Positions 8,951 to 32,000 of a stretch of 32,000 nt of DNA are shown piece by piece; the stretch's first letter is position 1; the number at the start of each line of letters is the position of its first letter. Below the pieces are notes generated by a model. The model was not told where the DNA came from. It searched no databases and saw only the letters and a program-made list of their open reading frames with translations. Position numbers and translations under genes: made by a program. The stretch is taken from the NCBI RefSeq assembly GCF_019464535.1, contig NZ_CP080507.1, positions 2,310,001 to 2,342,000 of the forward strand. The letters run 5' to 3'. The DNA comes from Horticoccus luteus (GTDB lineage Bacteria > Verrucomicrobiota > Verrucomicrobiia > Opitutales > Opitutaceae).

Positions 8951-8955
8951 CCGCC

Positions 8956-14863: not shown

Positions 14864-15482
14864 GCGTCCGGCTGGCGATAGCGACGGCAAGTCTGCTGCC
14901 TGACCACTCTTTGCGTAGCATTAGATCTTTTTAAGCGCTTTCTGCCCACCTGGGCTCACCGAACGCGCATGCGGCCATGGTGCGAAACTCATGACGCGCC
15001 GCCAACGCCGCCCCACGTTCGGCATACGTTCGCACCTCTCCCGTGCCGGCGTTTTTGCTCAAGCGTTTCCGTCTTCCCCTCCTTCGCTGTCGCGAAGCAT
15101 TTGCATCGACGAGCCCCGCCCCGTGCTCGCGCTACCGGGCCGCGCTCGGCGCTCAACCCGATCGATCCCACGCGGCGCGTTCCACTTCCTCCGCTGGCAG
15201 GTTTAAAGTGCATTCGCGCCCTCAACCTCGACCCCGACTTGCCCCCCGAGCTGACCTTCCCATCCACACAAGCGCAACCGGTTGGACGTAAGCAGTGAAA
15301 TCGAAGAAACTTATAACCCCCGCCGCCAATTCTTCGGGCTCGCATCGGCAAGGGTCCCTCGGGCTTCATCAACGGCGCTACTTTGGTTCATGGGCGCGAC
15401 CGTGGGCTTCCCAGCCTCCGGACCACGGTTTTATGAACCCGGTAGACGTCAGCCTCGTCCGTCCACTTCAATACTCCGGTCC
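14864..15482 (+). promoter_or_regulatory. 619-bp non-coding region upstream of the giant gene (promoter and leader presumed, elements not identified)
   Basis: No ORF here has coding-like composition, and the region is visibly less GC-rich than the flanks. All other same-strand gaps from 8172 to 14863 are 45 nt or less or overlap. I could not identify a convincing -35/-10 pair. Confidence 0.35.
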
Positions 15483-15566
15483 ATGGTCCGTCGTGCTCGC
15501 GCGCGCCTCGCTCTCTTGGTTTTGGCCATCACTATGTCGGTGGCCATCGCTCGCGCCGCGCAGACA
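15483..15566 (+). other. Signal peptide of the giant protein
   Basis: The n-region is RRARAR, the h-region is LALLVLAITMSVAIA and an A-x-A-like site (ARA|AQT) follows. Confidence 0.7.
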
Positions 15567-18500
15567 CTCTACGTGCGCGCCGACGCCACCGCCGGGGGCA
15601 ACGGAGCCTCTTGGGCGACGGCTTACAACGATCTTCAGACTGCCATCGCCGCCGCCTCGCCTTCGAACAGCAACCCCGTCGAAATTTGGATCAAGACAGG
15701 CGTCTATAAGCCCACCACCGGCACTAACCGCGCCACCCGGTTTGAACTGAAGAGCTACCTCACGCTGCGCGGCGGTTTTGCCGGCACCGAATCTGCAGCG
15801 AGTCAGCGCACGGCTTCGGCGAGCGCCACGACCTTCACAGTCCTAAGCGGCGACATCGGCACCCCCCAGCCCGACGCCATCACCGCCACGACGAACGTGA
15901 ACGACCTCGCGGGGCGAACGTTCGATTTCTCCACCGCCGGCCTAAAGGACAACTGCTACAACGTCGTGCACGCTTACGGCGTGTCCTACGCTTTCCTCGA
16001 CCGCGTCGTCATCGCCGGCGGCTGCGCGGACTCGACCGCCGTTTCGCAGTCCCAGATCGAAACCATGCTCCAGCCGACGACGGCCGACGGCAGCGGTTTC
16101 CGCCAAGGGATTGATGACCGTGTCACCGGCGGCGGCCTGTTCATGGGCAATGCCGATGTCGTGCTCACCGATTGCTGGGTCATCGGCAACTACGCGAAGG
16201 GCATCGGCGGCGGCATCGTGGTGCGCGGTGGTTCGCTCAACCTCCAAAACAACCGCATCGCCCGCAACGTCAGCGGCTATGCCGGCGGCGGCGTCAGCGC
16301 CCAGCAGACCACCATCGCCGCCCTCAACGGTAATTATTTCTACGGCAACTCCACTCCCTTCCTCGGCGGCGGACTCTTTCTGCAGGCGGATACCGGCAAC
16401 AAATACGTCAAAGCCTACGAAGCCACCCTCCTCGCCACCCTCGCCGGCGTCACCGTCGACGATTCCATCACGCTGCCCGCGCTCGTCTCCCAGCCTCTGC
16501 ACTTCGATCCGAGCATCCTCTACGACAAGCTCTCGGAACAGAAAACGCAGTTCAAGATCGCGAAGACCATTGCCAAAAAAGCGGCGGAGAAAGCCGGCCT
16601 GATTGCCCCGCAGAAACTGCTGACCAACCCGCTCACGGCCTATGCCACCAAGGGTTTTGGCGCCGCCCTCGGCTCCTCGTATAATTGGGTCAGCACCGCC
16701 GTCACCGCCGTGGATATCGGCGTGCAACTCGCGGTCCTGCTCGGCGCCGATCCGAATGATCCCTTCATCCGCGGCTGGTCGACCTTCAGCGCCGGCTTCG
16801 CGGCCTACGCCACGCCCTCCGGGCTCGCGTTTACAATCCGGGATTTCTTCGTCGATCTCTTCGCCTACCACCCGAGCTTCGAAGAACGCGCCACCAAGCT
16901 CCGCAACCAGGATTACACCGACCACCAAAACACCGCGACCCGCACCGAGATGCTCGACAACCACTTCGAGCATAATTTCTCCGGCGGCTACGGTGGCGGC
17001 GCAGTCTTCCTGCGCGCCAATGTCCTCTTGCACCGCTGCTGGTTCGTCGAAAACGAGGCCACCTACGGGGGCGGCGGCGCCGCGGCGTTCGCCTACAATA
17101 ACGTCGATTTTGAAAACAGCGCCGTGCTGCGCAACCGCTCCGCGTTCGGTCATCCCGGTTTCACCTTCGCGTTCCGTTCCGTCGCCCGCCTCGTCAATCT
17201 CACCATCACCGGCAACTACGGCGCCACCGCCAGCGGGTTCGCCGTCGGCGTCGATGCCGGCGCCGACGCCAGCCTGATCAATTGCGTGTTGTGGGACAAC
17301 ACCAACGCCCAGCTCACCAAGGGCGGCGCCGACCTTTTCGCGACCCGCCTGGCCGATCTGGATGACGCCGGCGTGAAAGCCTACAACGACGCCGGCGATT
17401 CTCACGGCCTCTTCACCGGCACGCTCGATTTCCAATACTGTGATGTGCAGGGCCTCAGCACGCTCACGTATGGCACCGCGCTTTTCTGGCCCACGGTCGC
17501 TTACTGGGAGACCAACGTCGACCCCTACGGCATGAACGTCGCGTCCGCCTGCCCCGACGTGGGCGAAGGCATTCGCCCCGGAGCCGTGGTTTTGTTCGGT
17601 GCCGGCGTCGGCACCCGCGGGAACTTCTCCCGCGCCCCCTACCTTTTGCAGGACGTTTATCCCCATCCCTCCTCGCCGCTCATTAACGCCGGCAGCCCCG
17701 GCACGTATTTTCACAACGGCACCGAGGACGACCTCGTGCGCCACTATCGAGGCACGCAGAACGGTCGGATCGACGTCGGCGCGGTCGAAGGCAACGGCCT
17801 GCTCCCCCCCGGCACCATCGTTTACGTCAACTCCGCCGCCTCAACGTCCGGCGATGGATTGTCCTGGGCCGGAGCGAAGAAGACCCTCGCTGAAGCGCTC
17901 GCCCTCCCGCTCGCCACGGGCAACCAGGTCTGGGTCACGGCCGGCACCTACTACGCCACCCCCGGCGTCGACCGCAGTGTCTCCATGCATCTCCCGCCCG
18001 GCTGCATTCTCGTCGGCGGCATGCCGTTCGGCGCAGCGTCGATCGACGCCAGTGATCCGGTCGCCAATCCGACGATCGTCAGCGGCAATATCGGCAATCC
18101 CGCCTCCGCCGCCGACAACACCTCCTGCCTCCTTTCCGCCCACGACCTCGCCGACGGCCAGGAAACCCTCCCTCGCATCATCCGCGGCATCCGTTTCACC
18201 GCCGCCAATTCCACCTCCGCCGCCGTCTGGGTTTGCACCCCCGTCGTCATCCAGTCGTGCCGCTTCGATAACAACGCCGGCGGCCGCGCCCTGCAGATCT
18301 CCGGCACCAGCGTCAACAACGTCGCGGCCGTCGGTCAGGTCTTCGACTGCGTTTTCGAGAGCAACGCCGCCGGCGGCCTCGCCTGCTCCGCGCCCCGCCT
18401 GGACGTGATTCGCACGAATTTCTTCGATAACACCGCCCCCGCCAGCGCCGGCCTCCTCCACACCTCCAGCTACTACGAATCGGAGCTCAAACTGGAACGC

Positions 18501-21500
18501 TGCCTCTTCTACCACAACACCGCCACCGCCGGTCGCGGCGGCGGCGCCGGCTTCAACGGCCGCTCACTGATCATCGCCCACACCGTCTTCGCCGACAACA
18601 CCGCCACGCCGGCCACCGACGACAATTCCGTCCGCGGCGGCGCGGGCTTCTATTGGACTTTCATCGATTCCAACGCCGCCTACTCCGCGCCGTGGATCAC
18701 CGTTAACTCGATCTTTTACGGCAATCGGCTCACCGGCACCTTCGCCCCCACCACGCTCGAAAACCAGCAGTTCGGCCTCTCCCTTGATCTGCCGGCTTAT
18801 TACCCGATCTGGAGCCTGCGCAAATTCGCCGGCAACGACATTGAAGGCCTCACTCGCCTCGCCACCCGCAACGGTGCCGAGGGCAACGTCGACTACGATC
18901 CATTCTTCGTTTCGCCGACGTCCCATAATTTCTCGCTCAGCGTTGACTCCCTGCTCCTGAACGCCGGCTCCGCCTACAGCTCCGGCACCGACACGACCAC
19001 GATCGTCGGCGGCTTCGCCGACATCGGTGCCATCGAAAGCACGGCCACTTCCTCCTTCGTCCCGTTTGCCCTCACGTTCACCGCCCTGCCCGCCACCGCC
19101 AACGGTCGAAACTACACCCTCACCACGTCGGCCAATCCCACCGCCACGTCCTTCATTTGGGAGGTTCGCCGCCCCGGCGCCACCGAATGGACCACCGTCA
19201 CCAACGACGCCTACACCACCGGCGCCGGCACTCGCACGCTCACCCTCACGACGCCGCCGCACACGTGGAACGGCAGCATCTACCGGCTCCGCCTCGTCGC
19301 TTACGGCCTGCGTTATTACAGCCTCGAGCAGACGGTCGCCATTCTCCCGTCGTTCCTCTTCGTCAAGCCCACCGCCACCGGCACGGGCGACGGCACCTCG
19401 TGGACCAACGCCTGCACCCTGCCCACCGCCCTCGGGCTGGCGGTCAACTTCACCCAAATCTGGATCGCCCAAGGCACCATTCCGCTCTCGCCGAGCTACC
19501 CCAACCGCATCCGGATTCCCACCGGCGCCCGGCTCTACGGCGGCTTCGTCGGCACTGAAACCTCGCTCGCGCAGCGTCCCGGCGTCGGCTCCGCTGTCAC
19601 CCACATCAAGTCGGCCAATGGCGAACCGCTATTCCAAGTCATCGGCACGAACCCCGCGACCGACACGCCGACGCTGATTGACCGCGTCACGGTCGAAAGC
19701 AACAGCCCTTCCACCTACACCCGCGGCCCCGGTTTCCAGCTCGAAAACGCGAACTGCGCCTTCACCGACGTCACGTTTTCATACCTCTGGCAAGGCGCGC
19801 GCATTCGCAACGGCGGCCAGATTTCCTTCACCAATCTCACCGCCACCTTCTGCGGCACCGCGCTCGATATCGACAGCGCCGCTGTCCAGATCACCGGCAG
19901 CCAGTTCGAAAATTGCGGCACCACGCAGAACACCGACATCTCGGCCGGCGCGATCCAGAATTTCCGCGGCACCGTCACGATCGCCGACTCCACTTTCTCC
20001 AGTAATGGCGGTTACTATGCCGGCGCGATTTATTCTGCCGGCGGCAGCGGCTCCATCGACCTGCAGCGTTGCCGTTTCCTCGATAACCGCGGCTGGCGGT
20101 GGGCCGGCGCGATCTTCGTCAGCCATGATTCCGGCACCCGCATCGCCAATTCCCTCCTCGCCCGCAACCAGGTCGTTTCCGGCAGCGGCAACGGCGGTGC
20201 CATCCTGAACTACGGCAGCCTCTCCATCGTGCACTGCACGCTCGTGGCCAACCGCGCCGCCTACGACAGCGCCATCTCCGCCGTCGGTCCGACGTCGCTC
20301 ATCAACTCCATCGTGTGGGGCAACACATTCCCCGACATCGGCCATCCCGAACTGCAACGCGTGATCGGCAACACCTCCGCGTCCAACTCCCTTGTCCAAG
20401 GCGGCGGCGCCTACGATCCTTTCTTCGATCCCGCCAGCGCCGACTACGCCCTGACCGCTTACTCGCCCGCGCTCAATCGCGGCGGCACCGACGACGCCCT
20501 CGCCGGCACGCTCGATCTCGCGGGTCACGTCCGCCGCTATTCCGGCGGCGCCGCCGATCTGGGCGCCAGCGAGTTCGCCGGCCCACCCGGCACGCCTGTC
20601 TATCTCACTTCGCCGATCTCCGACCAGACCGTCTACGTCGAGCGCACCGCCACGTTTACGTTGACGGGCACCATCGGCTCCACCGTCAGCTCCACGGCGT
20701 TCACCTGGGAATACAAGAATGGCGCCTCCTGGGCACCGATCGCCGGTATTCCCAACGCCGTCATCACGTCCTCGACCACGGGCAGCACGCTCACGTTGAC
20801 GAACGTCACGACGTCGCAAAACGGTCTCCAATTCCGTGCCACCGCCCCCGGCGTCGGCAGCCTCGGCACCGCCACGCTCACCGTCAAAAATCGCGTCATC
20901 CTTTACGTCGACAGTCGCGTCGCCACCTCCGGCAACGGCCTCACCTGGGCCACCGCCCTCAAAACCATCACCGAAGCGATCACCCGCGCCACCGCCGACA
21001 CCGACATCTGGATCGCCACCGGCGACTACGCTGATGCCGGCATCACGCCGCCTCCCGAGGCCCGCGTTTACATCGGCTTCTCCGGCAACGAAACCTCGGT
21101 CGATCAGCGCGATCCTGCCGCCAACCCGATCCGCGTCGGCCAACCGCTCGCCGACGTCACGCTCGTCGTCGACGACGTCACCACGCTCGTCCCACCGTTG
21201 ACGCTCGCCGCCGGGCAGAGCGCGCGTTGGCAGGTCGACACCGGCGGCGGCAATTTCGTCGATCTCGTCGCCGACGCCGATCGCACCATCAGCCTCGTGA
21301 AAGGTGTTCCCGGCCTCAGCCTACACGCGAACCTCGCCCTCACCGGCTACCGTTATCGCGTCGTCGTCTCGGATAACACGGGCGACCTTTTCACCTCCGA
21401 CAGCGCCCAGATCACCGTCATCCCGCGCCCGACCGTCTACGTCGATGCCGCTGCCGCCAGCGGCGCCCACACCGGCGCTGATTGGGCCAACGCCTTCAAC

Positions 21501-24500
21501 GACCTCGCCGCCGCCCTCGCCGCCTACCCCGCTTTTGCCGATTTCAAAATCGCCGAAGGCACCTACACCGCGCCCGCCGGCACGAGCTTCCAGCTCCGCC
21601 GCAGCCTCACGCTCACCGGCGGCTACGTCGCCGGCACCGCGACCCGCGATCCCGCCGCGCATCTCACCATCCTGCAATCCGCCGACGGCACCGTTGCTTC
21701 CTCCACCGCGCTCAAGGTCAACGCCGACCGCGGCATCGTCGACGCGCTCACGGTCCTCGACGGCTTCACTTTCCGCCACGCCGGCACCGGCCTCTCCCTC
21801 CGCGACGCCTCGCCGCAGCTCCGCAATTGCCGTTTCGAAAACCTCATCACCGGTCTCTCCGCCGCCTCTTCGACATTCACGATCGAGGACAGCGCGTTCA
21901 CCGGCCAGACGCTCAGCGCCATCCGCACGAGCAACCAGTCCGCCCTCACGGTCCTGCGCTGCACGTTCACCAATAATTCCGCCGGCACCGATGTCTACGT
22001 CGGCGGCGGCGCGATCGGCCTGGGCGATGGCGGCACTCAGCCCGGTCCGCAATCGCTCGTCGTCAACGACAGCACGTTCATCGGCAACTCGGCTTACGTG
22101 GGCGGCGCGATTTCCGTCCGCAACTTCGGCAGCACGGTCACCCTCACTCGCTGCCGCTTCGACGGCAACACCGCCAGCGACACCGGCGGCGCGCTCACCT
22201 GTGTCTCCGGCGGCTCCGTCACGGTCCGCGATTCCGCCTTCGTCCGAAATCAGTCCGCCCGCTTCGGGAGCGCCATCGTGAGCGACGCCCCGCTCACCCT
22301 CGCGTTCGTCACCGTCGCTGCCAACGTCGCCGGCGCTCACCCGAGCAACGCCGCCATCTCCACCGCCGCGCCCCTCACTGTCCGCGACAGCATCATTTGG
22401 GGCAACACCAACGCTGGCGTCAGCCAGGGCGAATACGGCCAATACAGCACCAACAACGTCACTCCGACGTTCTCTGATTCGATCGTCGATGGCCTCCTCC
22501 GCACCGCCGGCGCCCGCCTCCTGCCCTTCGACCCGCGCTTCGTCGACGCCGCCCACGGCGATTTCCGCCTCGCCCCCGACTCGCCCGCACTCGGCCTCGC
22601 GCAATCCGCCGATCTTCTGGCCGACGAAACCGATCTCACCGGCGGCCCGCGTCCCGCCGGCGCCGCGCCCGACCTCGGCGCCTACGAATCCGCCGCCGCG
22701 CCCGCGCCCGTCTACACGTTCACCCATCTCCCGACCGCCCTGTCCGGTTACTCCGGCAGCGATCTGCCTGCACTCAGCCAAAGCATCCCCGTTGGCTACA
22801 GCGGCGCGTGGCAATATAATAGCGGCTCCGGTTGGGTCACGCTCCCCTCATCCTCCAGCACCGCCCTTCCCGGCGCGCGCAGCATCTTCGTCAATTCCCA
22901 ATCCAGCTCCCTCTTCACCCAGCTCTCGATTTTTGGCCTCTCCTCCGCGCTCGACGCCACGAACCTCCGCTTCGTCCTCACCGCCGGATCCAACACCTAC
23001 CCATCGCCGGCCATCCCGATCACCGTCCTGCCGTTCGCCACGCTCTACGTTGATGCGAGTCGGGGGTCTTCCGGCGATGGTGCGTCGTGGGCCACCGCGT
23101 TCAAAACCCTCGACGAAGGCCTCGCCGCCGTCGACGCCGGCCATCGCGTCCTTTACGTCGCCGAGGGCAGCTACCGCGGACCGTTTGTCCTCCCGATGCG
23201 CTTTGAGATCTACGGCGGATTTCCGACCGGCGGCAGCGACTTCCCTTCGCGCGATCCCTCCGCGCACCCGACGATTCTCACCGGCCTCGCCGCCAACGGC
23301 ACCGATCGCACCGACGTCGTCCGTCTCGCTTACAGCGGCAACAACTACAGCCAGCCGATCGTCGACGGCTTCGTCATCGAAAACGGCCACACCGGCCTCT
23401 CTGCCGATGTCGGCGTCGCGCCCACGCTCCGCCACCTCGTCGTTCGCGGCCACGATGCCACCGGCCTCGTCCTCAACCAAAGCAGCGGCGCCTCCCTCAC
23501 GGATTCGCTTTTCGAAAACAACGCCGGCACCGACGGCGGCGCGATTCGCACCATCAACTCCTCGCAGACCACGCTCGAACGCGTGATCGTCCGCGGCAAC
23601 TCCGCCACGCGCGGCGGCGGCCTCTACCTCGCCGACAGCGCCATTCTCCGCTCCGTGCTCGTGACCGGCAACGTCGCCGACACCGGCGGCGCGATCTACT
23701 TCGCCGGCTCCTCGCCGCTCCTCACGCAGGTCACCCTCGCCGGCAACCGCGCCACCACCGCCCCCGCGATCTACACGCGCTACGCCCCCGTTGCGTTGCG
23801 CAACAGCATCGTCTGGGGCAACCGCGCCACGTCCGGCGACGCCCTCGTCCAATTCGGCTCCTTCGATAGCGGCACGTATTTCATCTTTGACCACGTCACC
23901 GCCGAGCAGGCGCCCACGACCACCGGCATCCTTCGCGCCGATCCGCTCTTCATCACCGCCGTCGATCCGTCCGCCGCGCCGACCACCACCGGCGATTATC
24001 GCGTCCGCGCTGTCTCGCCCGCGATCGACGCCGGCGCCGACGCCTTCGCCACAGGCATCACCCTCGATGTCGCCGGCCAGCCGCGCGTCGTCGGCCCGGT
24101 CGACGTGGGCGCCTACGAATCCACGACGACCGGCATCACCCCGCTCGCCATTGCCGCCCCGCCCGCCGCGCTCGCGTTTCACCGCAGCGGCTCCGGCAAC
24201 ACCTTCTCCATTTCCGCCACCGGTGCCGCCTCGATCCTCTGGCAATCCGCCGCGCCCAACGGCGCCTGGACTTCCCTCGACGGCGCCCCCGGTTTCTCCG
24301 GCGCCACCACCGCCACGCTCACCGTCACCGCCGCTACGCCCGCGCTCAACGGCTATCGGTTCCGCGCGCTCGTCACCGGCACCGACGGAAGTGTCGTCAC
24401 CTCCGACGCCGCCACGCTCACCGTTTACGTTTCCCGCCTCTACGTAAACGCCGCGCGCGCCGGCTCCGAAACCGGTGACGGCCTCACCTGGGCCACCGCG

Positions 24501-27500
24501 TTCCACGCGCTCGACGACGCGCTCGCCGCCGCCCCGCTCGATCCCGAAGGCACCGAAATCTGGATTGCCGCCGGCACCTACCCGCCCGCGACGGTTTACA
24601 CGGCGCGCAGCGGCCTCGCGTTCTACGGCGGTTTCGCCGGCACCGAAACTTCGCTCGGCGAACGCGACCTCTCCGCCCACGTCACCGCCTTCACCGCCGC
24701 CGCCGGCCAGTCGTCGATCTTCACCACCGCGTCCACGCCGGCCTACGCGCTTCCAATTCGCTTCGACGGCCTCACGTTCAACAACAGCGCCTCCGCCACC
24801 GCCGTCACCAACGCCGGTCGCGCGCTCGATTTCGATCGCGTCCGCTTCACCGGAGTCGCCGCCGCCCTTTCCAGCCTCTACGCGCCCGTCACCCTCCGCC
24901 GCGTCGAGGTGCGCGGCAATGACAGTGCCTCGATCCTCGTCTACGTCCTCGGCGGCTCCGCCCTCGTCGAAAACTCTCTCTTCGCTGGCAACCGCAGCAG
25001 CGGCTCCGGCCAGCTCACATATTTCGCCGCGCCCACCATCATCCGCCACAGCACCTTCGCCAGCAACCGCGGCGACCATCCGCCGTTGTCTTTCGGCGAC
25101 GCCAACAACCAAACCTACAACTCCATTTTCTGGGGCAACCGCCAGCTCTCGTCGCCCGCCACCGCCACCAGCCTGAACGGCGCCGCCCGCCTCTACGTTG
25201 TCTGGAACAGCGTCGTCGAAAACCTCACCGACCTCACCCGCGTTGCGACTTCGCTCCAAAATAACACCGCCGCCGACCCGCGCTTCGTCGCCCCGCTCGC
25301 CGCCACCGCCACGCCGTTCACCGCCGGCGATTTCTCCCTCAGCAGCGCGTCGCCTGCGATCGACCTCGGCAAAAACGACCAGACTTCCTCCGACGCGATC
25401 GACCTCGCCGACCACGCGCGCCAGCACGGCCTCTACGTCGATCCCGGCGCCTACGAATATCAGGCTGACGACATCTACGCGCTCACCACGCAGCCCGCCT
25501 CGACCTACGCCTCCGCCGTCACTCCCGCCACGTTCACCGTCGCCGGCTCGCGCGCTGCCACCTTCGCCTGGGAGGTCAGCGCCGACGCCGGCGCCCACTA
25601 CACCGCGATCCCCGGCGCGACCACCGCCACGCTCACGGTTCCCGGCGCCGCCGAAGTCGATGGCAACCTCTACCGCGCCCGCGTCCAGTTCGTCACCGGC
25701 CCCGAACTGGTTTCGTCTGCCGTCACACTCTCCTTCCTGAACCCCGTCGTCACCGCCTCCGCACCCGCCGGGTTTGCCACGCCCGCCTCGTTCTCCGCCA
25801 CCGCCAACCAATCCGTCACCGCGTGGCAATGGCAGGTGAGCACCGGCGGCGGCGCGTTCACCGATGTCCCGGGCGCGACCTCCACCGCGCTCGACGTGTC
25901 CGGCGACGCTTCGTTCGCCAATCGCACCTACCGCGTCCAGGCGACCTTCGCCGCCGGCCCCGTCGTCACGTCCAACACCGTGGCCTTTGTTTACGCCGAC
26001 GCCGTGCCCGCCTCCACCTCGCCGGCGCAACTCGCGTTCTCAGTCGCCGGCGGTGTGCAACCCGCCTCGCTCACCGACGCGAACTTCGCCGTCCTCCCGC
26101 AGTTCTCCGGCCGTCTGTCCCTCACCGCCGGCGATCTCACGCCCACGTTCAACGGCGCCGCCGTCTCCTTCTCCTTCGCCGAACCACTTCCCGCCGGATC
26201 ACGCGTCTTCGTCACCACCACCGCCGCCCTCCGCCGTGCCGACGGCGTCGGCGCCCGTCCGCAAGTCTGGGAATACCGCGTGCCCACCATCAGCGGCGCC
26301 GGCGCCTTCGCTCTGCCCACCACCCTCTCCCTCGCCACCGCCACCACCCTCACCGCCGGCGACGTCGATGGCGACGGCACGCCCGACCTTCTCGTCGCCG
26401 ACACCGACGGTCTCCGCGTCTGGCGCAACGACGGCCTCGGCGCCTTCACCGCCGACGCCTCCGCCTTCGGCTCCGCGAATGCCAAAGCCCTCGCTCTCGG
26501 CAGCCTCTCCGCCAACGCCACCCTCGACGCCGTCGTCATCACCGCCACGGGCGATGTCGAAATCTGGACCAACGACGCCGCCGGCCACTTCACCCTCGCG
26601 CAAACCCTCCCCTCACTCTCCGCCCGCGCCATCGCCCTCGGCGATCTCGATGCGGACGGCGACCTCGATCTCGTCGTCGCCACCGCCACCGGCAATCGCG
26701 TTTACCTTAACAACGGTTCCGCCGTCTTCACCCCTGGCGCCACCTTCGGCTCCGCCGCCGCCACCTCCGTCGCCCTCGCCGACTTCGACCTCGACGGCGA
26801 TCTCGACGTGATCGTCACGAGCACAACGAACACGATCATCTACTCCAACAACGGCTCCGCTGCCTTCACCGCCGCGCTGACCAGCGCCACACCCGCCGAC
26901 CGCGTGACCACCGCCGATCTCGACGCCGACGGCCGCCTCGACGTGATCCTCACGCGCGCCGATCAGCCGGCGCGCCTGTGGCGCAACACCGGCGCATTCC
27001 AGTTCACCACGCTCGCCGCCGCGCCCGGCGGCGGCACCCTCGCGACCCTCGCCGCAGGCGATATCGACGGCGACGGCCGCGCCGACCTGATCCTCACCGA
27101 CGCCGTCGGCACCACCTCGCCGTGGCTCACCGCGCCCGATCTCGCCAGCGCGCCGCTCACCGCCCAACCGCTCCTCAATCTCGGCGCCGACGTCACGCTC
27201 GCGGACCTCGATGGCGACGCCGCTCTCGATCTCGTCGGCCTCGATGCGGCCGGCCATCCGATCGCCTCACTCTATCATCGCACCGCGACGCAACTCGACG
27301 AAGGGACCACCGCCTCGCTCGCCGCCGCCGGCTTCACGCCCGCGCCGACCACCGTTCACCTCGCGTCGCTCCCGGCCCATGGCACGCTCCTGAACGGCGT
27401 CACGCCCGTGCAAATCGGGGACACCTTCCCGCTCGCCGCCGCAGCCTCGCTCACCTATTCGCCGGCGGCCCATTTCAACGGCCTCGATTCGTTCACGTGG

Positions 27501-30500
27501 AGCGACACCGATGGTGGTGCTCCGCGCACCTACTGGCTGCTCGTCAAACCTGTCGTCGACAGCATCACCGCGACTGACGACACCCTCACCGTCGCCCAAG
27601 GCGGCACCGCCACCACGCTCGATGGCGCCATCGCCAGCGTCCTTGCCAACGACATTAACGAGGACGACGGCGCCTTCGTCGCGTTCATCGTCACCCGCCC
27701 CGCGCACGGCACACTCACGCTGAACTCGGACGGCACGTTCAGCTACGTCCACGACGACTCCGAAACACGCACCGACTCGTTCACCTACCGCGCCAAGAAC
27801 CTCGTCACCGGTGCCTATGCCGACGCCACCGTGGCGATCACGATCCAAAACGTAAACGCCGCTCCCACCGCCATCGCCCTTGCACCGGCTTCCGGCACGC
27901 ATTACACCGGCCAGCCCGCCGGCGACACGGTTGCGCTCCTCTCCGCCAGCGATCCCGACCCGGAAGATGCCGGGCTGCTCACGTTCACGCTCGTCACCGG
28001 CACCGGCGATACCGGCAATGCCGACTTCACCCTCTCGGGCACGTCGCTCGTCACCGCCGGCCCCATTGATTCTTCGCTCGGCCTGACGCGCTCCCTCCGC
28101 GTTCGCGCCACCGACCCCGCCGGGCTCTGGTTCGAGCAAACGTTCACGGTTTCATTCACCCAGGCCCCGACGCCGCTCGCCGCCAGCGCCACCCTCGACG
28201 AAGACACGCCCGCTGCGCTCACCCTCTCCGCCGCCGGCGGCGCCGCCGCGCTCACCTACGAAATCGTCTCCGCTCCCGCCCACGGCTCGCTCACCGGCAC
28301 CGCGCCCAATGTCACTTACACGCCGTCCGCCGACTACAACGGCAACGATTCCTTCACGTTCCGCGTCACCGATGGCACAGTCACGTCGGCGCCCGCGACC
28401 GTTTCGCTCACGATCAACCCCGTTAACGACGCCCCCACGCTCGCCACGCACGAAATCACGACCGACGAGGACACGCCGGTCACCTTCACCCTCGACGGCT
28501 CCGACGTGGAAAACGACCCGCTCACCTACCACATCTACACCTCTCCGCGCCTCGGCAGCCTCGTCATCAACGGCTCCTCTGCCACCTACACCCCGAGCCA
28601 CCTCGGCGGCCAGTTCGGCACCGAAGACGCGTTCCTGCTCTACGTCGACGACGGCTCGCCGCTCGGTTTCTCCTCGCCCGTCCTTTTCACCGCCCACGTC
28701 GCCGCCATTCCCCACGCGCCTGTCCTCGACGCTCTTCCCGGCGGCGGCTTTGGCGGTAACAAAAACGAGCCGATCACCTTCACCGTTCACGCGACCGATC
28801 TCGACGGCGGCTTCATTAGCTACCGCGTCGGCACCGCGCCCGCGCACGGCAGCGTTCGCTTCAGCGGCGCCGATGTCACCTACGTGCCCGCCTACAACTT
28901 CTCCGGCGCCGACTCGTTTACCATCGTCGCCACCGACGGCGCGCTCGATTCCGCGCCCCTCACCGCGATCGTCGCGGTCGCCGACCCCGTGCCGGGCGCG
29001 TTCGATCTCTCGTTCACCGGCGCCCAACACACCACGCTGCACGGCTACTTCCAAGGCAGCGATGCGCAGAACGACCCGCTCACCTACCAAGTCCTCACCG
29101 CGCCTGCCCATGGCTCGATTGCCCAACGCACCGAAGTTGTGACCGTCGATTCGATCTCCGCCCTCACCTCCTGGGTCGACTACACGCCTGACGCCGCCTT
29201 CAACGGCACCGACTCGCTCACCTACGTCGCGATCGATCCCGCCGGCCAGGTTTCTGATCCCGCCACGATCACGTTCAACGTCACCGCCAACAATCTCGCG
29301 CCCGTCGCCACCGACGTCTCCGTTTCCCAACTCGGCCTCGCGTCCACCGCCGCCGTCACGCTCGCCGCGACCGACGCCGAGGGCGATGCCCTCACCTACC
29401 GCATCGTCACGCCGCCCACGCACGGCCAGCTAACCGGCGATGGCTCCGCCGCGGTCACCTACACGCTCGCCGCCGCGCCCTTTGTCGGCACCGACACATT
29501 CACCTACGTCGCCAACGACGGCTCGCACGACTCCGCACCTGCCACGGTCACGCTCAACTTCACGAAGGACGTTCGCGCCGCCCACACCGTTGGCGACCTC
29601 GTCGACGTCTATCGCGGCCTCGGCACCGACATCGACGTCCTCGCCAACGATCACGACGACTGGGGCGATCCGATGTTTATCTTCGAGGTCACGCAGCCCG
29701 CCCACGGCACCGTCACCAAATTCAGCGACCACGTCTATTACGCCCACAACGGCGACTCCGCCACCGACGACGAGTTCACCTACACCGTCTCGAACTTCAG
29801 CGGCCTCACCGTCACCGAACACGTTTTCATCACGGTCAAAGATTACGTCATCAACGTCACCTCCAACGCCGACTCCGGCGAGGGCACCCTCCGCGCCGCC
29901 ATCGACACCGTCAACCGCTACGCTTTCACCCCGCTCACGCCCTCCGGCGACCGCGCCGAGTGGACGATCAACCTGCTCCTCGCCGCCGACAGCAGCATCA
30001 TCAACGCCCTGACCGCCGGCGCGAGCAACGACATCGCCCCCGCTGTCCCCGACCACGATACGCTCGGCGCCTCCGCCTACGAAATCCAAGGCCATGTCAC
30101 CATCCGCGGCGCGGCGCCCTCCGGCCGCGTCACGCTCAACCCCATCGCCGCCGGCGGCCGCCTCCGCGCGTTCTACATCGACCCGCGCGCCGTGGTCACG
30201 TTGCAGGACATCGACGTCACCGGCGGCACCGCGCACCTCGGCGGCGCCATTCTCAACGACGGCGCACTCACACTCGAAAACGTCACCCTCTCCGCCAACA
30301 CCGCCGACGCCGATGCCGACGCCCCGGGTCGCGGCGGCGCGCTCTACAACCGCGGCGATTTCGCGCACTTCAATACCATCGCCACCCTCTCGCTCACCAA
30401 CGTCGCCTTCACCGGCAACGTCGCCACCGAAGGTGCCGGCCTCTATCAGGCCAACGGCGAAATCACCGCGCACAGCGTCACCTTCTCCGGCCACGATGCC

Positions 30501-32000
30501 ACCGCGCGCGATTACCGCCTCGCCGCCGGCACGTTCACCGCCGAGTCGCTCACCGCGGATACCCCGGGCGCGCCGTGGTTCGGTCCGCTCACGCCCGTCA
30601 CTATCCGCAACCGGTTCACGCAGACGATCCCCGTCGATCTTGCCGCCGGTGATTCCTTCGCGGTCACGAGCCAGATCCCGTGGTCTGGCGACGCCAACAT
30701 CCTCGTCGCCGGGCCATCGTTCACCGTCAGCGGCCGCGGCGACACGCGCACCATCACCACCGATCTCGGCGCCTCGCCGACCGCCGGCCCCGTCTATCTC
30801 ACCGCCACCGCGACCGGCCATGGCGCCACCTTCATCCGCAAGGCCCAGGTCACCGTCGACCCCGCCGTCGTGCGCACACCAGTCGCGCGCGACGACTACA
30901 TCACCTCCCCCGCGCAAGGCAGCACGATCCCCGTCCACGATCTGCTCCTCGCCAACGACTCCGACCCCGACGGCCTGAATCTCTACATCAACGACTACAC
31001 GCAGCCCCAATACGGCACCGTTTCCGAGGTCGGCGGCGTTCTCTCCTACTCCTCGCCCAACGCCGCGAACGGCTACGAAGACTCGTTCACCTACACGATT
31101 ACCAACGGCACCCACACCGCGACCGCCACGGTGCACGTTCTCCATATTCCCAACCGTATCGTTGCCGTCACCTCCGCCGCCGATTCCGACAGCGGCACGC
31201 TCCGCGCCGCGCTCGCCCAAGCCACCCAATATTCCGCCCAAGCCTGGACGCTCTCGCCCATCGGACTTTCCTCGCCCTCGCTCACGCTCGCCACCGCCGC
31301 TGAAAACGACCCCGAACTCGGCGCCTCCGCCCTCGTCATCACCACCGATGTCACGATCGATGGCAGCGGCGTTCCCAATCTCGTCGTGAGCCCGGATGCC
31401 AATGCCGCGCCCATGCGCCTCTTCCGCATCGCCCCCGGCGGCAAGCTCACGCTGCGCAACCTCACCGTCTCCGGCGGCTCCGCCCATCTCGGCGGCGCGA
31501 TCTACAACGAGGGCAAGCTCGTCCTCGATCACGCCACGCTTTCCAACAATACCGCCACCGCTCCCGACGCCGCTACCGCCGGACTCGGCGGCGCGATCTA
31601 CAACGCCGGCGGCTCGGTCACCCTCACCGGCTCCCACCTCGAAACGAACACCGCCGCCGACGCCTCGGGCACCGTTTTCGGCCTCGGCGGTGCGATCTAC
31701 ACCCGCGACGGCGCGGTCACGCTCACCGACTCCGCCCTCGCCGATAACATCGCGCAGAACGGCGCCGGCCTCTACGCCGAAGGCATCACCGGCGCCACCG
31801 CCACGTTCATCACCAGCGTGCTCGACAATCCCGATGGCGTCGCCGACCTCGCCGGCACCGGCAACGTCGCGTTTCACCGCACCCGCAGCACCATCGTTCG
31901 CATCGACGGGCCTTCCGTCGGTTCACTGATCGATCAAACCATCGATCGCAACGACTTCACCGGCGACACCACCGGCGCCGTCGCCTTCACCGCCAGCGAC
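15483..32000 (+). CDS. Giant secreted mosaic surface/adhesin-like protein (beta-helix x7, Ig-like, FG-GAP propeller, cadherin-like repeats, Pmp-like beta-helices); 3' end beyond the window (>=5,506 aa)
   Basis: The frame with codon starts divisible by 3 is stop-free from 15255 to 32000; I checked every stop trinucleotide by hand. ATG 15483 gives the Sec signal peptide MVRRARARLALLVLAITMSVAIARAAQT. The translation is domain-like throughout. The ORF is not in the supplied track, and no listed + ORF uses this frame across the 16.5 kb. Confidence 0.88.
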   Translation, partial: MVRRARARLALLVLAITMSVAIARAAQTLYVRADATAGGNGASWATAYNDLQTAIAAASPSNSNPVEIWIKTGVYKPTTGTNRATRFELKSYLTLRGGFAGTESAASQRTASASATTFTVLSGDIGTPQPDAITATTNVNDLAGRTFDFSTAGLKDNCYNVVHAYGVSYAFLDRVVIAGGCADSTAVSQSQIETMLQPTTADGSGFRQGIDDRVTGGGLFMGNADVVLTDCWVIGNYAKGIGGGIVVRGGSLNLQNNRIARNVSGYAGGGVSAQQTTIAALNGNYFYGNSTPFLGGGLFLQADTGNKYVKAYEATLLATLAGVTVDDSITLPALVSQPLHFDPSILYDKLSEQKTQFKIAKTIAKKAAEKAGLIAPQKLLTNPLTAYATKGFGAALGSSYNWVSTAVTAVDIGVQLAVLLGADPNDPFIRGWSTFSAGFAAYATPSGLAFTIRDFFVDLFAYHPSFEERATKLRNQDYTDHQNTATRTEMLDNHFEHNFSGGYGGGAVFLRANVLLHRCWFVENEATYGGGGAAAFAYNNVDFENSAVLRNRSAFGHPGFTFAFRSVARLVNLTITGNYGATASGFAVGVDAGADASLINCVLWDNTNAQLTKGGADLFATRLADLDDAGVKAYNDAGDSHGLFTGTLDFQYCDVQGLSTLTYGTALFWPTVAYWETNVDPYGMNVASACPDVGEGIRPGAVVLFGAGVGTRGNFSRAPYLLQDVYPHPSSPLINAGSPGTYFHNGTEDDLVRHYRGTQNGRIDVGAVEGNGLLPPGTIVYVNSAASTSGDGLSWAGAKKTLAEALALPLATGNQVWVTAGTYYATPGVDRSVSMHLPPGCILVGGMPFGAASIDASDPVANPTIVSGNIGNPASAADNTSCLLSAHDLADGQETLPRIIRGIRFTAANSTSAAVWVCTPVVIQSCRFDNNAGGRALQISGTSVNNVAAVGQVFDCVFESNAAGGLACSAPRLDVIRTNFFDNTAPASAGLLHTSSYYESELKLERCLFYHNTATAGRGGGAGFNGRSLIIAHTVFADNTATPATDDNSVRGGAGFYWTFIDSNAAYSAPWITVNSIFYGNRLTGTFAPTTLENQQFGLSLDLPAYYPIWSLRKFAGNDIEGLTRLATRNGAEGNVDYDPFFVSPTSHNFSLSVDSLLLNAGSAYSSGTDTTTIVGGFADIGAIESTATSSFVPFALTFTALPATANGRNYTLTTSANPTATSFIWEVRRPGATEWTTVTNDAYTTGAGTRTLTLTTPPHTWNGSIYRLRLVAYGLRYYSLEQTVAILPSFLFVKPTATGTGDGTSWTNACTLPTALGLAVNFTQIWIAQGTIPLSPSYPNRIRIPTGARLYGGFVGTETSLAQRPGVGSAVTHIKSANGEPLFQVIGTNPATDTPTLIDRVTVESNSPSTYTRGPGFQLENANCAFTDVTFSYLWQGARIRNGGQISFTNLTATFCGTALDIDSAAVQITGSQFENCGTTQNTDISAGAIQNFRGTVTIADSTFSSNGGYYAGAIYSAGGSGSIDLQRCRFLDNRGWRWAGAIFVSHDSGTRIANSLLARNQVVSGSGNGGAILNYGSLSIVHCTLVANRAAYDSAISAVGPTSLINSIVWGNTFPDIGHPELQRVIGNTSASNSLVQGGGAYDPFFDPASADYALTAYSPALNRGGTDDALAGTLDLAGHVRRYSGGAADLGASEFAGPPGTPVYLTSPISDQTVYVERTATFTLTGTIGSTVSSTAFTWEYKNGASWAPIAGIPNAVITSSTTGSTLTLTNVTTSQNGLQFRATAPGVGSLGTATLTVKNRVILYVDSRVATSGNGLTWATALKTITEAITRATADTDIWIATGDYADAGITPPPEARVYIGFSGNETSVDQRDPAANPIRVGQPLADVTLVVDDVTTLVPPLTLAAGQSARWQVDTGGGNFVDLVADADRTISLVKGVPGLSLHANLALTGYRYRVVVSDNTGDLFTSDSAQITVIPRPTVYVDAAAASGAHTGADWANAFNDLAAALAAYPAFADFKIAEGTYTAPAGTSFQLRRSLTLTGGYVAGTATRDPAAHLTILQSADGTVASSTALKVNADRGIVDALTVLDGFTFRHAGTGLSLRDASPQLRNCRFENLITGLSAASSTFTIEDSAFTGQTLSAIRTSNQSALTVLRCTFTNNSAGTDVYVGGGAIGLGDGGTQPGPQSLVVNDSTFIGNSAYVGGAISVRNFGSTVTLTRCRFDGNTASDTGGALTCVSGGSVTVRDSAFVRNQSARFGSAIVSDAPLTLAFVTVAANVAGAHPSNAAISTAAPLTVRDSIIWGNTNAGVSQGEYGQYSTNNVTPTFSDSIVDGLLRTAGARLLPFDPRFVDAAHGDFRLAPDSPALGLAQSADLLADETDLTGGPRPAGAAPDLGAYESAAAPAPVYTFTHLPTALSGYSGSDLPALSQSIPVGYSGAWQYNSGSGWVTLPSSSSTALPGARSIFVNSQSSSLFTQLSIFGLSSALDATNLRFVLTAGSNTYPSPAIPITVLPFATLYVDASRGSSGDGASWATAFKTLDEGLAAVDAGHRVLYVAEGSYRGPFVLPMRFEIYGGFPTGGSDFPSRDPSAHPTILTGLAANGTDRTDVVRLAYSGNNYSQPIVDGFVIENGHTGLSADVGVAPTLRHLVVRGHDATGLVLNQSSGASLTDSLFENNAGTDGGAIRTINSSQTTLERVIVRGNSATRGGGLYLADSAILRSVLVTGNVADTGGAIYFAGSSPLLTQVTLAGNRATTAPAIYTRYAPVALRNSIVWGNRATSGDALVQFGSFDSGTYFIFDHVTAEQAPTTTGILRADPLFITAVDPSAAPTTTGDYRVRAVSPAIDAGADAFATGITLDVAGQPRVVGPVDVGAYESTTTGITPLAIAAPPAALAFHRSGSGNTFSISATGAASILWQSAAPNGAWTSLDGAPGFSGATTATLTVTAATPALNGYRFRALVTGTDGSVVTSDAATLTVYVSRLYVNAARAGSETGDGLTWATAFHALDDALAAAPLDPEGTEIWIAAGTYPPATVYTARSGLAFYGGFAGTETSLGERDLSAHVTAFTAAAGQSSIFTTASTPAYALPIRFDGLTFNNSASATAVTNAGRALDFDRVRFTGVAAALSSLYAPVTLRRVEVRGNDSASILVYVLGGSALVENSLFAGNRSSGSGQLTYFAAPTIIRHSTFASNRGDHPPLSFGDANNQTYNSIFWGNRQLSSPATATSLNGAARLYVVWNSVVENLTDLTRVATSLQNNTAADPRFVAPLAATATPFTAGDFSLSSASPAIDLGKNDQTSSDAIDLADHARQHGLYVDPGAYEYQADDIYALTTQPASTYASAVTPATFTVAGSRAATFAWEVSADAGAHYTAIPGATTATLTVPGAAEVDGNLYRARVQFVTGPELVSSAVTLSFLNPVVTASAPAGFATPASFSATANQSVTAWQWQVSTGGGAFTDVPGATSTALDVSGDASFANRTYRVQATFAAGPVVTSNTVAFVYADAVPASTSPAQLAFSVAGGVQPASLTDANFAVLPQFSGRLSLTAGDLTPTFNGAAVSFSFAEPLPAGSRVFVTTTAALRRADGVGARPQVWEYRVPTISGAGAFALPTTLSLATATTLTAGDVDGDGTPDLLVADTDGLRVWRNDGLGAFTADASAFGSANAKALALGSLSANATLDAVVITATGDVEIWTNDAAGHFTLAQTLPSLSARAIALGDLDADGDLDLVVATATGNRVYLNNGSAVFTPGATFGSAAATSVALADFDLDGDLDVIVTSTTNTIIYSNNGSAAFTAALTSATPADRVTTADLDADGRLDVILTRADQPARLWRNTGAFQFTTLAAAPGGGTLATLAAGDIDGDGRADLILTDAVGTTSPWLTAPDLASAPLTAQPLLNLGADVTLADLDGDAALDLVGLDAAGHPIASLYHRTATQLDEGTTASLAAAGFTPAPTTVHLASLPAHGTLLNGVTPVQIGDTFPLAAAASLTYSPAAHFNGLDSFTWSDTDGGAPRTYWLLVKPVVDSITATDDTLTVAQGGTATTLDGAIASVLANDINEDDGAFVAFIVTRPAHGTLTLNSDGTFSYVHDDSETRTDSFTYRAKNLVTGAYADATVAITIQNVNAAPTAIALAPASGTHYTGQPAGDTVALLSASDPDPEDAGLLTFTLVTGTGDTGNADFTLSGTSLVTAGPIDSSLGLTRSLRVRATDPAGLWFEQTFTVSFTQAPTPLAASATLDEDTPAALTLSAAGGAAALTYEIVSAPAHGSLTGTAPNVTYTPSADYNGNDSFTFRVTDGTVTSAPATVSLTINPVNDAPTLATHEITTDEDTPVTFTLDGSDVENDPLTYHIYTSPRLGSLVINGSSATYTPSHLGGQFGTEDAFLLYVDDGSPLGFSSPVLFTAHVAAIPHAPVLDALPGGGFGGNKNEPITFTVHATDLDGGFISYRVGTAPAHGSVRFSGADVTYVPAYNFSGADSFTIVATDGALDSAPLTAIVAVADPVPGAFDLSFTGAQHTTLHGYFQGSDAQNDPLTYQVLTAPAHGSIAQRTEVVTVDSISALTSWVDYTPDAAFNGTDSLTYVAIDPAGQVSDPATITFNVTANNLAPVATDVSVSQLGLASTAAVTLAATDAEGDALTYRIVTPPTHGQLTGDGSAAVTYTLAAAPFVGTDTFTYVANDGSHDSAPATVTLNFTKDVRAAHTVGDLVDVYRGLGTDIDVLANDHDDWGDPMFIFEVTQPAHGTVTKFSDHVYYAHNGDSATDDEFTYTVSNFSGLTVTEHVFITVKDYVINVTSNADSGEGTLRAAIDTVNRYAFTPLTPSGDRAEWTINLLLAADSSIINALTAGASNDIAPAVPDHDTLGASAYEIQGHVTIRGAAPSGRVTLNPIAAGGRLRAFYIDPRAVVTLQDIDVTGGTAHLGGAILNDGALTLENVTLSANTADADADAPGRGGALYNRGDFAHFNTIATLSLTNVAFTGNVATEGAGLYQANGEITAHSVTFSGHDATARDYRLAAGTFTAESLTADTPGAPWFGPLTPVTIRNRFTQTIPVDLAAGDSFAVTSQIPWSGDANILVAGPSFTVSGRGDTRTITTDLGASPTAGPVYLTATATGHGATFIRKAQVTVDPAVVRTPVARDDYITSPAQGSTIPVHDLLLANDSDPDGLNLYINDYTQPQYGTVSEVGGVLSYSSPNAANGYEDSFTYTITNGTHTATATVHVLHIPNRIVAVTSAADSDSGTLRAALAQATQYSAQAWTLSPIGLSSPSLTLATAAENDPELGASALVITTDVTIDGSGVPNLVVSPDANAAPMRLFRIAPGGKLTLRNLTVSGGSAHLGGAIYNEGKLVLDHATLSNNTATAPDAATAGLGGAIYNAGGSVTLTGSHLETNTAADASGTVFGLGGAIYTRDGAVTLTDSALADNIAQNGAGLYAEGITGATATFITSVLDNPDGVADLAGTGNVAFHRTRSTIVRIDGPSVGSLIDQTIDRNDFTGDTTGAVAFTASD
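15567..25457 (+). repeat. Seven tandem beta-helix units within the giant CDS, six complete and one cap-only, most followed by an Ig-like spacer
   Basis: Cap motifs (L/V)(Y/F)V...G.G.(S/T)W..A...L..A(L/I)...W(I/V)..G.Y start at 15567, 17820, 19356, 20901, 21435, 23043 and 24438. Closing D.GA.E motifs end at 17789, 19037, 20573, 22688, 24119 and 25457. Confidence 0.75.
26290..27275 (+). repeat. Seven FG-GAP/VCBS-type repeats (predicted 7-bladed beta-propeller) within the giant CDS
   Basis: The repeats read GDVDGDGTPDLLVAD, (degenerate) ANATLDAVVITATGDVEIW, GDLDADGDLDLVVAT, ADFDLDGDLDVIVTS, ADLDADGRLDVILTR, GDIDGDGRADLILTD and ADLDGDAALDLVGLD. Several are followed by (W/Y)xN(D/N/T)G.(A/G).F. 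Confidence 0.75.
27276..29845 (+). repeat. About nine cadherin-like/'tandem-95'-type ~90-100-aa repeats within the giant CDS
   Basis: Recurrent signatures are (D/E)EDTP..(L/F)TL, P.HG(S/T/Q)(L/V), Y.P...(F/Y)(N/S/V)G.D.F.(Y/F/I)...D and the junctions NPVNDAP, NVNAAP and NNLAP. Confidence 0.7.
29847..32000 (+). repeat. Two Pmp-like 'GGAI' beta-helix modules, separated by an unassigned segment and one cadherin-like repeat, within the giant CDS
   Basis: The caps are INVTSNADSGEGTLRAAI (29850-) and VAVTSAADSDSGTLRAAL (31159-). The coils are HLGGAILND, GRGGALYNR, GAGLYQA, HLGGAIYNEG, GLGGAIYNAG, GLGGAIYTR and GAGLYAE. Confidence 0.7.

Follow-up and report, generated by a model that had tools for sequence, protein, structure and literature searches.

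Giant bacterial genes of more than 15 kb that carry the same annotations as the locus described here have been interpreted as encoding adhesins, both in Planctomycetes (PMC7717043) and in bacteria at large (bioRxiv 10.1101/2023.11.21.568195), where Reva and Tummler 2008 is cited on giant genes of this class. Their products (PMC7717043, Table 2; bioRxiv 10.1101/2023.11.21.568195) also fall in a class of 5,000-14,000 amino acids (aa) and share a vocabulary of cadherin-like domains, immunoglobulin (Ig)-like domains, pectin-lyase-fold beta-helices and calcium binding, adhesion being the role proposed for them. Here we describe a 32,000-nt stretch of the Horticoccus luteus genome (Verrucomicrobiota, Opitutaceae; contig NZ_CP080507.1, positions 2,310,001 to 2,342,000 of the forward strand), hereafter the window, the second half of which is occupied by the 5′ part of one giant gene; the part of its product encoded there is called the window protein. 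Its likeness to the giants above is one of size class and domain vocabulary, and an N-terminal module with a helical insert and a terminal domain ending in RFYR are specific to the verrucomicrobial family to which it belongs.

Two further classes of adhesin invite comparison. The chlamydial Pmp proteins, which are type V autotransporter adhesins, resemble the window protein in having a Sec signal and a beta-helix passenger with GGA[ILV] motifs (Chlam_PMP 24.1 bits, cutoff 20.6), and the two PMP-type modules of the window protein pass for this class by repeat motif, with five GGA[ILVF] but one FxxN. They differ in that the orthologue C-termini tested lack an autotransporter beta-barrel and in that PMP-type sequence makes up no more than roughly the final tenth of the window protein, which is about six times larger than a Pmp. 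The type I-secreted RTX adhesins (LapA, SiiE, MpIBP, BapA/LapF type) are likewise giant, acidic, calcium-binding chains of Ig-like or cadherin-like domains on the Gram-negative surface. Such adhesins have RTX repeats and a type I signal at the C-terminus and no Sec signal at the N-terminus, whereas the window protein has a Sec signal, its orthologue scores 17.5 bits with adhes_GNV_Cterm against a cutoff of 180, and the transporter upstream is of MacB type.

The original prediction, made from the letters of the window without database searches, had claimed a frame without stops from about the middle of the window to its end, encoding a secreted protein of at least 5,506 aa and missing from the open reading frame (ORF) listing. 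Reading the + strand in codons that begin at multiples of 3, one indeed meets the last stop at TGA 15252, after which the frame is open to 32000 (16,749 nt). From the base composition of the region about 98 stops would be expected in 5,582 codons (P(none) ~2e-43); the other two + frames contain 43 and 59 stops over the same stretch, and 200 shuffles produced stop-free runs of up to 703 codons. No other frame of the window stays open for more than 3,192 nt, a length attained on the antisense strand. The ATG at 15483 is present, the N-terminus reads MVRRARARLALLVLAITMSVAIARAAQTLYV, and 15483-32000 comprises exactly 5,506 codons for a polypeptide of 567 kDa with an isoelectric point (pI) of 4.6 and 24 Cys. 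As had been supposed, the frame is absent from the listing because it runs off the window end and the caller needs a stop codon, so that a stop-requiring caller misses one gene filling half the window.

Base composition agreed with coding in this frame. The G+C (GC) content at codon positions 1/2/3 is 0.62/0.55/0.86, even across every 1.5-kb slice, the third-position value (GC3) being 0.67-0.84 in the upstream neighbour genes. Nine ORFs of more than 300 aa (300-1,060 aa) lie in other frames and gave zero Pfam domain matches. The long antisense ORFs among them are, as predicted, of low complexity, rich in G/A/R/V/E/D (glycine 18-26% in the four with computed composition), and their GC peak falls on codon position 1, the pattern of shadow ORFs; the overlapping ORFs of 300-1,060 aa reported by such callers are shadows to be discarded.

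Relatives were sought by an exhaustive representative search, which returned 18,038 matches, 499 of them at ≤1e-30, the best being full-length giants; a word-indexed protein search with 1,200 aa gave fragments only, none longer than 2,083 aa, and the giant relatives were absent from its results. Family giants include P0241 (6,382 aa), P0242 (6,332 aa), P0243 (6,961 aa), P0246 (6,386 aa) and P0247 (6,105 aa), others reaching 7,792 aa, and P0245 is a partial Opitutus sp. protein. The closest, P0241 (MBS0630910.1, 'tandem-95 repeat protein'), is encoded in a Verrucomicrobia metagenome-assembled genome (GCA_018239845.1, JAFEGO010000025.1) and aligned by blastp in one high-scoring segment pair, aa 1-5506 against 1-5476, at 67.7% identity. 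It shares with the window protein the signal peptide, the order of all modules and the insert motif FAAYATP.GL, and its last 906 aa lie beyond the end of the window protein, where the window ends. By blastn its locus (L056) likewise gave a single segment pair of 16,578 columns (16.4 kb) at 75.2% identity, starting just after the signal peptide, with no DNA homology upstream of 15554. Differences per codon position amount to 0.24/0.16/0.34 and 1,169 codons differ synonymously only, so the substitutions show a coding pattern by codon position. The two loci differ in their neighbours, which are GSDH/cytochrome c and GH130 genes at the P0241 locus as against a methyltransferase and an ABC transporter in the window.

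A second orthologue, P0247 (WP_200351924.1, also named 'tandem-95 repeat protein'), is encoded by the cultured Luteolibacter yonseiensis, which we take to belong to another order of the phylum, as an intact 6,105-aa ORF in two assemblies. It is colinear with the window protein over aa 2-5492 at 42% identity with the same domain order, ends in a C-terminal 'FYRL' domain and is followed by a gene for a P-domain protein with a PEP-CTERM-like tail; it differs in a variant insert motif (FNTYLSPTGW) and in a GerE-type regulator upstream. Coming from a cultured strain, it offers a natural model for experiments.

The claim that half the window is one gene is therefore upheld by a single continuous ORF that aligns colinearly, in one block, with the 6,382-aa orthologue of an independently assembled genome: window 15483-32000 is shown to be the 5′ 86% of one intact, selectively constrained gene of ~19 kb and ~6,400 codons. 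The prediction had also raised the concern of repeat collapse or expansion. Internal DNA repeats of the gene are 60-86% identical over 31-76 nt and protein-level repeats 22-54% identical, which makes the internal repeats old; no long near-identical DNA repeats were found in the gene, so collapse of repeats during assembly is unlikely and was rejected.

The start and export signal were examined by reading the sequence, by hydropathy and from orthologue starts. The predicted Sec-type signal peptide has four Arg in its n-region, a 14-residue hydrophobic core LALLVLAITMSVAI, a hydropathy peak at aa 14-20 and an AxA cleavage site (AIA|RA or ARA|AQ), in line with what had been claimed for ATG 15483. 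It contains no Cys and is therefore not a lipoprotein signal. P0241 and P0001, both orthologues, begin at the corresponding Met and show this signal-peptide pattern too, and among the 5,506 aa only one hydrophobic 19-residue window, near aa 411, lies outside the signal peptide. An in-frame ATG at 15390, 31 codons before ATG 15483, would prefix a non-hydrophobic extension to the signal peptide; a start there is unsupported, the orthologues beginning at the position of 15483.

Domains were searched with Pfam and NCBIfam at curated cutoffs and with hidden Markov models (HMMs) built here, taking ATG 15483 as aa 1. The features of the gene, all on the + strand, are as follows.

15483 to 32000, + strand: 5′ part of the giant gene, 16,518 nt (5,506 codons), frame open to the last window base.
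15483 to 15557, + strand: start codon and predicted Sec-type signal peptide, aa 1-23/25.
15567 to 17792, + strand: beta-helix module 1, aa 29-770, from the LYV..G.G.SWA.A N-cap to DVGAVE (Beta_helix 34.3 bits, AlphaFold, Foldseek).
16395 to 16925, + strand: insert of ~175 aa in module 1, aa ~305-481, predicted helical (AlphaFold model, pLDDT 25-45).
17820 to 19313, + strand: beta-helix module 2 (aa 780-1186) and Ig-like domain (aa 1209-1277) (motifs, HMM).
19356 to 20879, + strand: beta-helix module 3 (aa 1292-1698) and Ig-like domain (aa 1721-1799) (self-similarity, motifs, HMM).
20901 to 21407, + strand: short module 4, N-cap (aa 1807-~1890) and Ig-like domain (aa 1904-1975) (weak DUF1565 N-cap, HMM).
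21435 to 23027, + strand: beta-helix module 5 (aa 1985-2403, best Beta_helix stretch) and divergent Ig-like region (aa ~2410-2515) (Pfam, choice_anch_Q).
23043 to 24413, + strand: beta-helix module 6 (aa 2521-2880) and Ig-like domain (aa 2904-2977) (NosD, DUF1565, HMM).
24438 to 25982, + strand: beta-helix module 7 (aa 2986-3326) and two Ig-like domains (aa 3347-3414, 3433-3500) (Pfam, NCBIfam, HMM).
25995 to 26282, + strand: linker domain of ~95 aa before the propeller, aa ~3505-3600 (76% identity with P0241).
26298 to 27275, + strand: seven FG-GAP blades of ~47 aa each, aa 3606-3931 (FG-GAP_3, HMM with 7 copies, 141-nt DNA periodicity).
27258 to 29795, + strand: cadherin-like/Big_9/tandem-95 array, aa 3926-4771 (eight copies match the HMM built here).
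29841 to 30782, + strand: PMP-type beta-helix A, aa ~4787-5100, with GGAI/GGAL motifs (self-similarity to aa 5238-5442).
30876 to 31109, + strand: ninth Big_9/cadherin-like domain, aa 5132-5209 (Pfam, HMM).
31155 to 32000, + strand: PMP-type beta-helix B, aa ~5225-5506+, with three GGAI motifs (Chlam_PMP 24.1 bits).

Every kind of domain that the original prediction had read into the translation was recovered by these searches. The beta-helix coils matched Beta_helix (132.5 bits, 1e-38) and, in some modules, NosD and DUF1565. Seven modules open with LYV..G.G.SWA.A (aa 29, 780, 1292, 1807, 1985, 2521, 2986), six of which close with the choice-of-anchor-Q motif D[LV]GA[YV]E (aa 764, 1180, 1692, 2397, 2874, 3320), module 4 being an N-cap only; choice-of-anchor Q itself (NF041518) scored 49.8 and 44.5 bits, two stretches per half, against a cutoff of 25. 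Behind modules 2-7 come Ig-like domains, one or two per module, six of which match the HMM built here. The FG-GAP repeats (FG-GAP_3 116 bits, 1e-33, cutoff 26.9; FG-GAP 49 bits) form seven blades, five with the calcium-loop motif DxDxDGxxD, and are by sequence assigned to an integrin-alpha-like beta-propeller. The cadherin-like repeats matched Big_9 (242.5 bits, 5e-73, 8 stretches), Cadherin_5 (140.6 bits), Cadherin_4 (113.4 bits) and tand_rpt_95 (NF012211; 223 bits against a cutoff of 90, 8 stretches, in 23001-31998), which places the protein among the tandem-95 proteins; our HMM found 9 copies, and a stretch at aa ~4110-4225 within the array reads like a classical cadherin domain. The predicted GGAI repeats correspond to 13 GGA[ILVF] motifs in the window protein. 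The linker domain gave no Pfam match in 25401-26300. The window ends soon after PMP-type beta-helix B, at the equivalent of P0241 residue 5476.

Domain matches above curated cutoffs were confined to the giant frame, the antisense ORFs giving none, the opposite of the outcome that the original prediction had named as refuting it. Among the negatives, no glycoside-hydrolase or polysaccharide-lyase model reached threshold in the giant frame, and the defence-system models (PADLOC) gave no match. Rhombotarget A (TIGR04212, GlyGly-CTERM) does not describe the protein, GlyGly_RbtA scoring 40.5 bits against 295 and covering profile positions 135-224 only, and the orthologue C-termini lack the hydrophobic tail of GlyGly-CTERM proteins.

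Module 1, the family-defining module, was modelled with AlphaFold. Its beta-helix coils were predicted at a confidence (pLDDT) of 80-90, and the insert was drawn as helices at an unreliable pLDDT of 25-45. Foldseek matched the model to the mannuronan C5-epimerase AlgE4 (E 2e-5), an alginate epimerase/lyase, a GH87 glucanase, phage tailspikes (CBA120) and the adhesin PfbA, at sequence identities of 7-11% and query-normalised TM-scores of 0.2-0.26. The model points to the right-handed beta-helix class and suggests a likeness to carbohydrate-binding or carbohydrate-processing proteins and to PfbA. The insert, which carries the motif FAAYATPSGL (aa 439) and the sole hydrophobic stretch beyond the signal peptide (aa ~411), gave no Pfam, NCBIfam or PDB sequence match; a single copy of its motif F-x-x-[YW]-x-T-P-x-G-[LWI], at aa 410-507 within the insert, is present in 17 of the 18 family members examined, including ones as low as 27% identity.

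The original prediction had placed the 3′ end and an anchoring signal beyond the window. The first part agrees with the orthologues: judged from P0241, about 906 aa (2.7 kb) would follow. As to the second part, the kinds of signal that it had listed were absent where they were looked for, namely in the last 943 aa of P0241 and the terminal domains of P0242 and P0247, where models for PEP-CTERM, T9SS, autotransporter, LPXTG and RTX gave no match; PEP-CTERM (TIGR02595) stayed below its 16 bits at the giant orthologue C-termini, and the T9SS type A/B sorting domains (TIGR04183/PF18962) were absent from the orthologues tested. By sequence reading and family matches, the remainder of P0241 has a third PMP-type beta-helix with a Big_9 domain on either side, then three repeats of ~100 aa, and it ends in a terminal domain of ~75 aa finishing in RFYRA, which is common to 11 of 12 full-length family members. 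RFYR[AL] domains were seen at the C-termini of P0241, P0242, P0243, P0246, P0247, P0250, P0251, P0257, P0266, P0292 and others. The model of the 'RFYRA' domain is a six-strand beta-sandwich (pLDDT 73) with no Pfam or NCBIfam match and no significant fold neighbour (the T9SS cargo C-terminal domain 8gl8_D matched only at E 0.46), and a profile search retrieved short unnamed fragments only (P0385-P0430), a form in which the domain is common in metagenomes.

Five orthologue loci include DNA beyond the giant gene. In all five, its neighbour is a gene encoding a small secreted protein, which lies 2-30 nt away or overlaps by 4 nt, at these coordinates.

L056, 29161 to 30890: small downstream gene at the P0241 locus.
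L057, 24348 to 25040: small downstream gene.
L059, 20988 to 22199: small downstream gene.
L060, 24888 to 26087: small downstream gene.
L061, 22085 to 22807: small downstream gene.

The products terminate in [IV]PEP followed by a hydrophobic segment and a cluster of basic residues, and the tails of two of the five reach the PEP-CTERM cutoff (24.6 and 19.5 bits), two more scoring 14.7 and 14.1. Four are mutually homologous over their full length (1e-19 to 1e-132) and contain a part resembling the proprotein-convertase P-domain, for which P_proprotein reached the Pfam threshold in three, the fourth, the L060 copy, showing at most a faint precomputed match; the L056 protein matches in its C-terminal part only and has no P_proprotein match. 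At L056 a TIGR02597 protein (1e-73) is encoded between the giant and the small gene, and in the giant P0258 a TIGR02597 domain is fused to the C-terminus (aa 7206-7537).

The best reading of these data, which we would put at a probability of roughly 0.66, is that one real gene encodes a Sec-exported, giant, calcium-stiffened surface fibre with an adhesive role. The ~6,400-aa product would cross the inner membrane by the Sec pathway with cleavage of its N-terminal signal peptide and would be located extracellularly or at the cell surface, as a long, acidic, multidomain fibre stiffened by calcium. Along the fibre, seven right-handed beta-helix modules with Ig-like spacers would be followed by the seven-bladed FG-GAP propeller, some nine cadherin-like domains and the PMP-type beta-helices; from the orthologues only, a further PMP helix, more cadherin-like repeats and the ~75-aa 'RFYRA' beta-sandwich may be expected beyond the window, and after them a small gene for a product with a PEP-CTERM-like tail. 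Its most likely job would be adhesion, through multivalent binding of polysaccharides, particles or other cells. The make-up is adhesin-like in its curated domain matches, its DxDxDG loops, its low pI and its 24 Cys, and we infer surface location, calcium dependence and adhesive function from domain content and by analogy with other giant bacterial proteins.

Several points weigh against this reading. The adhesive function is read from domain content, and the beta-helix fold in question is frequently that of enzymes such as lyases, epimerases and hydrolases. The signal peptide was called by eye and hydropathy, and the window does not reach as far as the 3′ end of this copy, with its stop codon and any sorting signal. 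No secretion system adjoins the giant gene, the exporter 5-9 kb upstream being of MacAB type and not of the type I kind.

That the frame is an artefact, either a chance opening in GC-rich DNA, an antisense shadow or several genes fused by assembly or sequencing error, would have some basis in the long spurious ORFs that high-GC DNA yields (antisense ORFs here reach 1,060 aa) and in the relative L052, in which the homologous region is split by a frameshift at 3.6x coverage. It is excluded by the improbability of the open frame (P ~2e-43, with shuffles reaching at most 703 codons), by a GC3 of 0.86 in the giant frame as against a position-1 peak in the antisense ORFs, by strong curated domain matches in the giant frame only and by intact colinear orthologues of 6,105-6,961 aa in independent assemblies, including an isolate genome. 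The main alternative accepts the gene and takes its product for an extracellular enzyme array, in which at least some of the nine beta-helix modules would cleave or alter polysaccharides, acting as lyases, epimerases or glycosidases, the Ig, FG-GAP and cadherin-like parts serving as spacers and substrate-binding modules. Opitutaceae are polysaccharide degraders, the best fold matches of module 1 are enzymes (AlgE4 at E 2e-5, the alginate epimerase/lyase, the GH87 glucanase and tailspike depolymerases), and NosD and DUF1565 matches point the same way, as does the 'glycosyl hydrolase activity' annotated on similar giant proteins (PMC7717043). Identity to those enzymes is only 7-11%, however, with TM-scores of 0.2-0.26, no glycoside-hydrolase or polysaccharide-lyase family model reached threshold, and the same fold occurs in the adhesin PfbA and in pertactin. 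We consider an enzyme array unlikely, while granting it more weight than any other alternative.

A different role for the same gene would be that of a surface-layer or sheath component, or of one half of a two-part anchoring system, instead of an adhesin, with the terminal 'RFYRA' domain or the N-terminal module docking on the small downstream protein with the PEP-CTERM-like tail. The adjacency of the small gene in five of five loci, the lack of a known anchor in the giant orthologues tested and the TIGR02597 protein, encoded beside the giant gene at one locus and joined to the giant protein at another, all speak for such a partnership. Adjacency is not interaction, however; these locus features all fall outside the window, of the five tails just two score high enough for the curated PEP-CTERM cutoff, and the fold of the terminal domain gave no significant match. 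This role appears improbable. Hardly better placed, though attractive, and equally to be treated as a doubtful proposal, is a conserved verrucomicrobial two-gene surface system in which an anchorless fibre of ~6,400 aa, with its YATPxGL-insert beta-helix and 'RFYRA' beta-sandwich, docks on an exosortase-anchored P-domain protein. The partner would be encoded directly downstream, sometimes together with a TIGR02597 protein; if true, the system would be an undescribed mode of tethering giant adhesins.

Whichever role applies, the window protein adds one member to a widespread, uncharacterised verrucomicrobial family of 5,000-7,800 aa, having its signal peptide, its module 1 with the F-x-x-[YW]-x-T-P-x-G insert and its colinear domain order. 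Among the best 150 matches, ~40 clusters (50% identity) start near their own N-terminus at the N-terminal module of the window protein. The exact sequence is new to the collections searched, while a 68%-identical orthologue and many relatives are already deposited under automatic names; scans of GTDB genomes and JGI metagenomes with the last 399 aa met relatives at 27-45% identity only, and an exact look-up of the neighbouring methyltransferase gave no match. In Planctomycetota and Verrucomicrobiota, giant adhesin-like genes comparable in size and composition are commonplace. The giant proteins of the family are probably among the largest single-protein investments of those cells, and the family likely governs attachment to particles, polysaccharides or hosts. 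In one relative, a 6.7-kb ENA contig of 3.6x coverage, a frameshift (L052:4904-4933) splits the homologous gene into two called genes, and homology to the window protein runs on in another frame to the contig end; the fragment P0001 is colinear with aa 3-1786 on either side of a frameshift, its contig having 3.6x coverage. A sequencing error is the probable cause of the split, though the gene may be a pseudogene.

Upstream of the giant gene, the window encodes topA, a conserved hypothetical protein, a class II fructose-bisphosphate aldolase, pgpA and pgsA (- strand) and a MacA/MacB-type exporter, and further along a tetratricopeptide repeat (TPR) protein, an NMT1-type ABC importer and an S-adenosylmethionine (SAM) methyltransferase. 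The exporter region and the leader of the giant gene comprise the following.

6787 to 8172: MacA-like membrane-fusion protein.
8183 to 8950: MacB-type ATPase.
8956 to 10164: MacB permease.
10145 to 11026: TPR protein, overlapping the MacB permease by 20 nt.
14864 to 15482, + strand: non-coding gap of 619 nt upstream of the giant gene.

The exporter at 6787-11026 is MacAB-type (MacB_PCD, FtsX) as opposed to type I; that the giant protein leaves the cell by a type I route, served by the HlyD/ABC genes upstream, was rejected on account of these MacAB-type genes and of its Sec signal. In the 619-nt leader no Rfam match, riboswitch, sigma-70-like promoter or Shine-Dalgarno sequence was recognised. 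The aldolase is 94% identical to its best match, matches at 91-92% being named Opitutaceae, Opitutus or Verrucomicrobia. The order topA, conserved hypothetical, aldolase (window 2-4737) is kept in relatives with 93-94% identical aldolases (L054 and two further loci), in which the downstream genes differ (ECH, Kup and others) and no giant gene lies within 10 kb of the aldolase block. Because everything downstream of the aldolase differs in these relatives, the genes from pgpA through to the giant gene have a different placement in this genome; the upstream contexts of the giant gene are not conserved among orthologues either.

In two relatives, 7TMR-DISM sensor genes lie divergently upstream of the giant gene (L052:114-1175, L060:1271-3891), accompanied at L060 by a histidine kinase and a GerE-type response regulator, and a GerE-type protein is encoded upstream at L057. 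These 7TMR-DISM and GerE-type genes may be regulators of the family; no such sensor or regulator gene stands beside the copy in the window. Finally, C exceeds G on the + strand throughout window 1-32000 (GC skew -0.08 to -0.32), and the skew peaks inside the giant gene, at -0.23 to -0.32 from 18 kb on, where its strength fits C-ending Ala, Thr, Gly and Ser codons.

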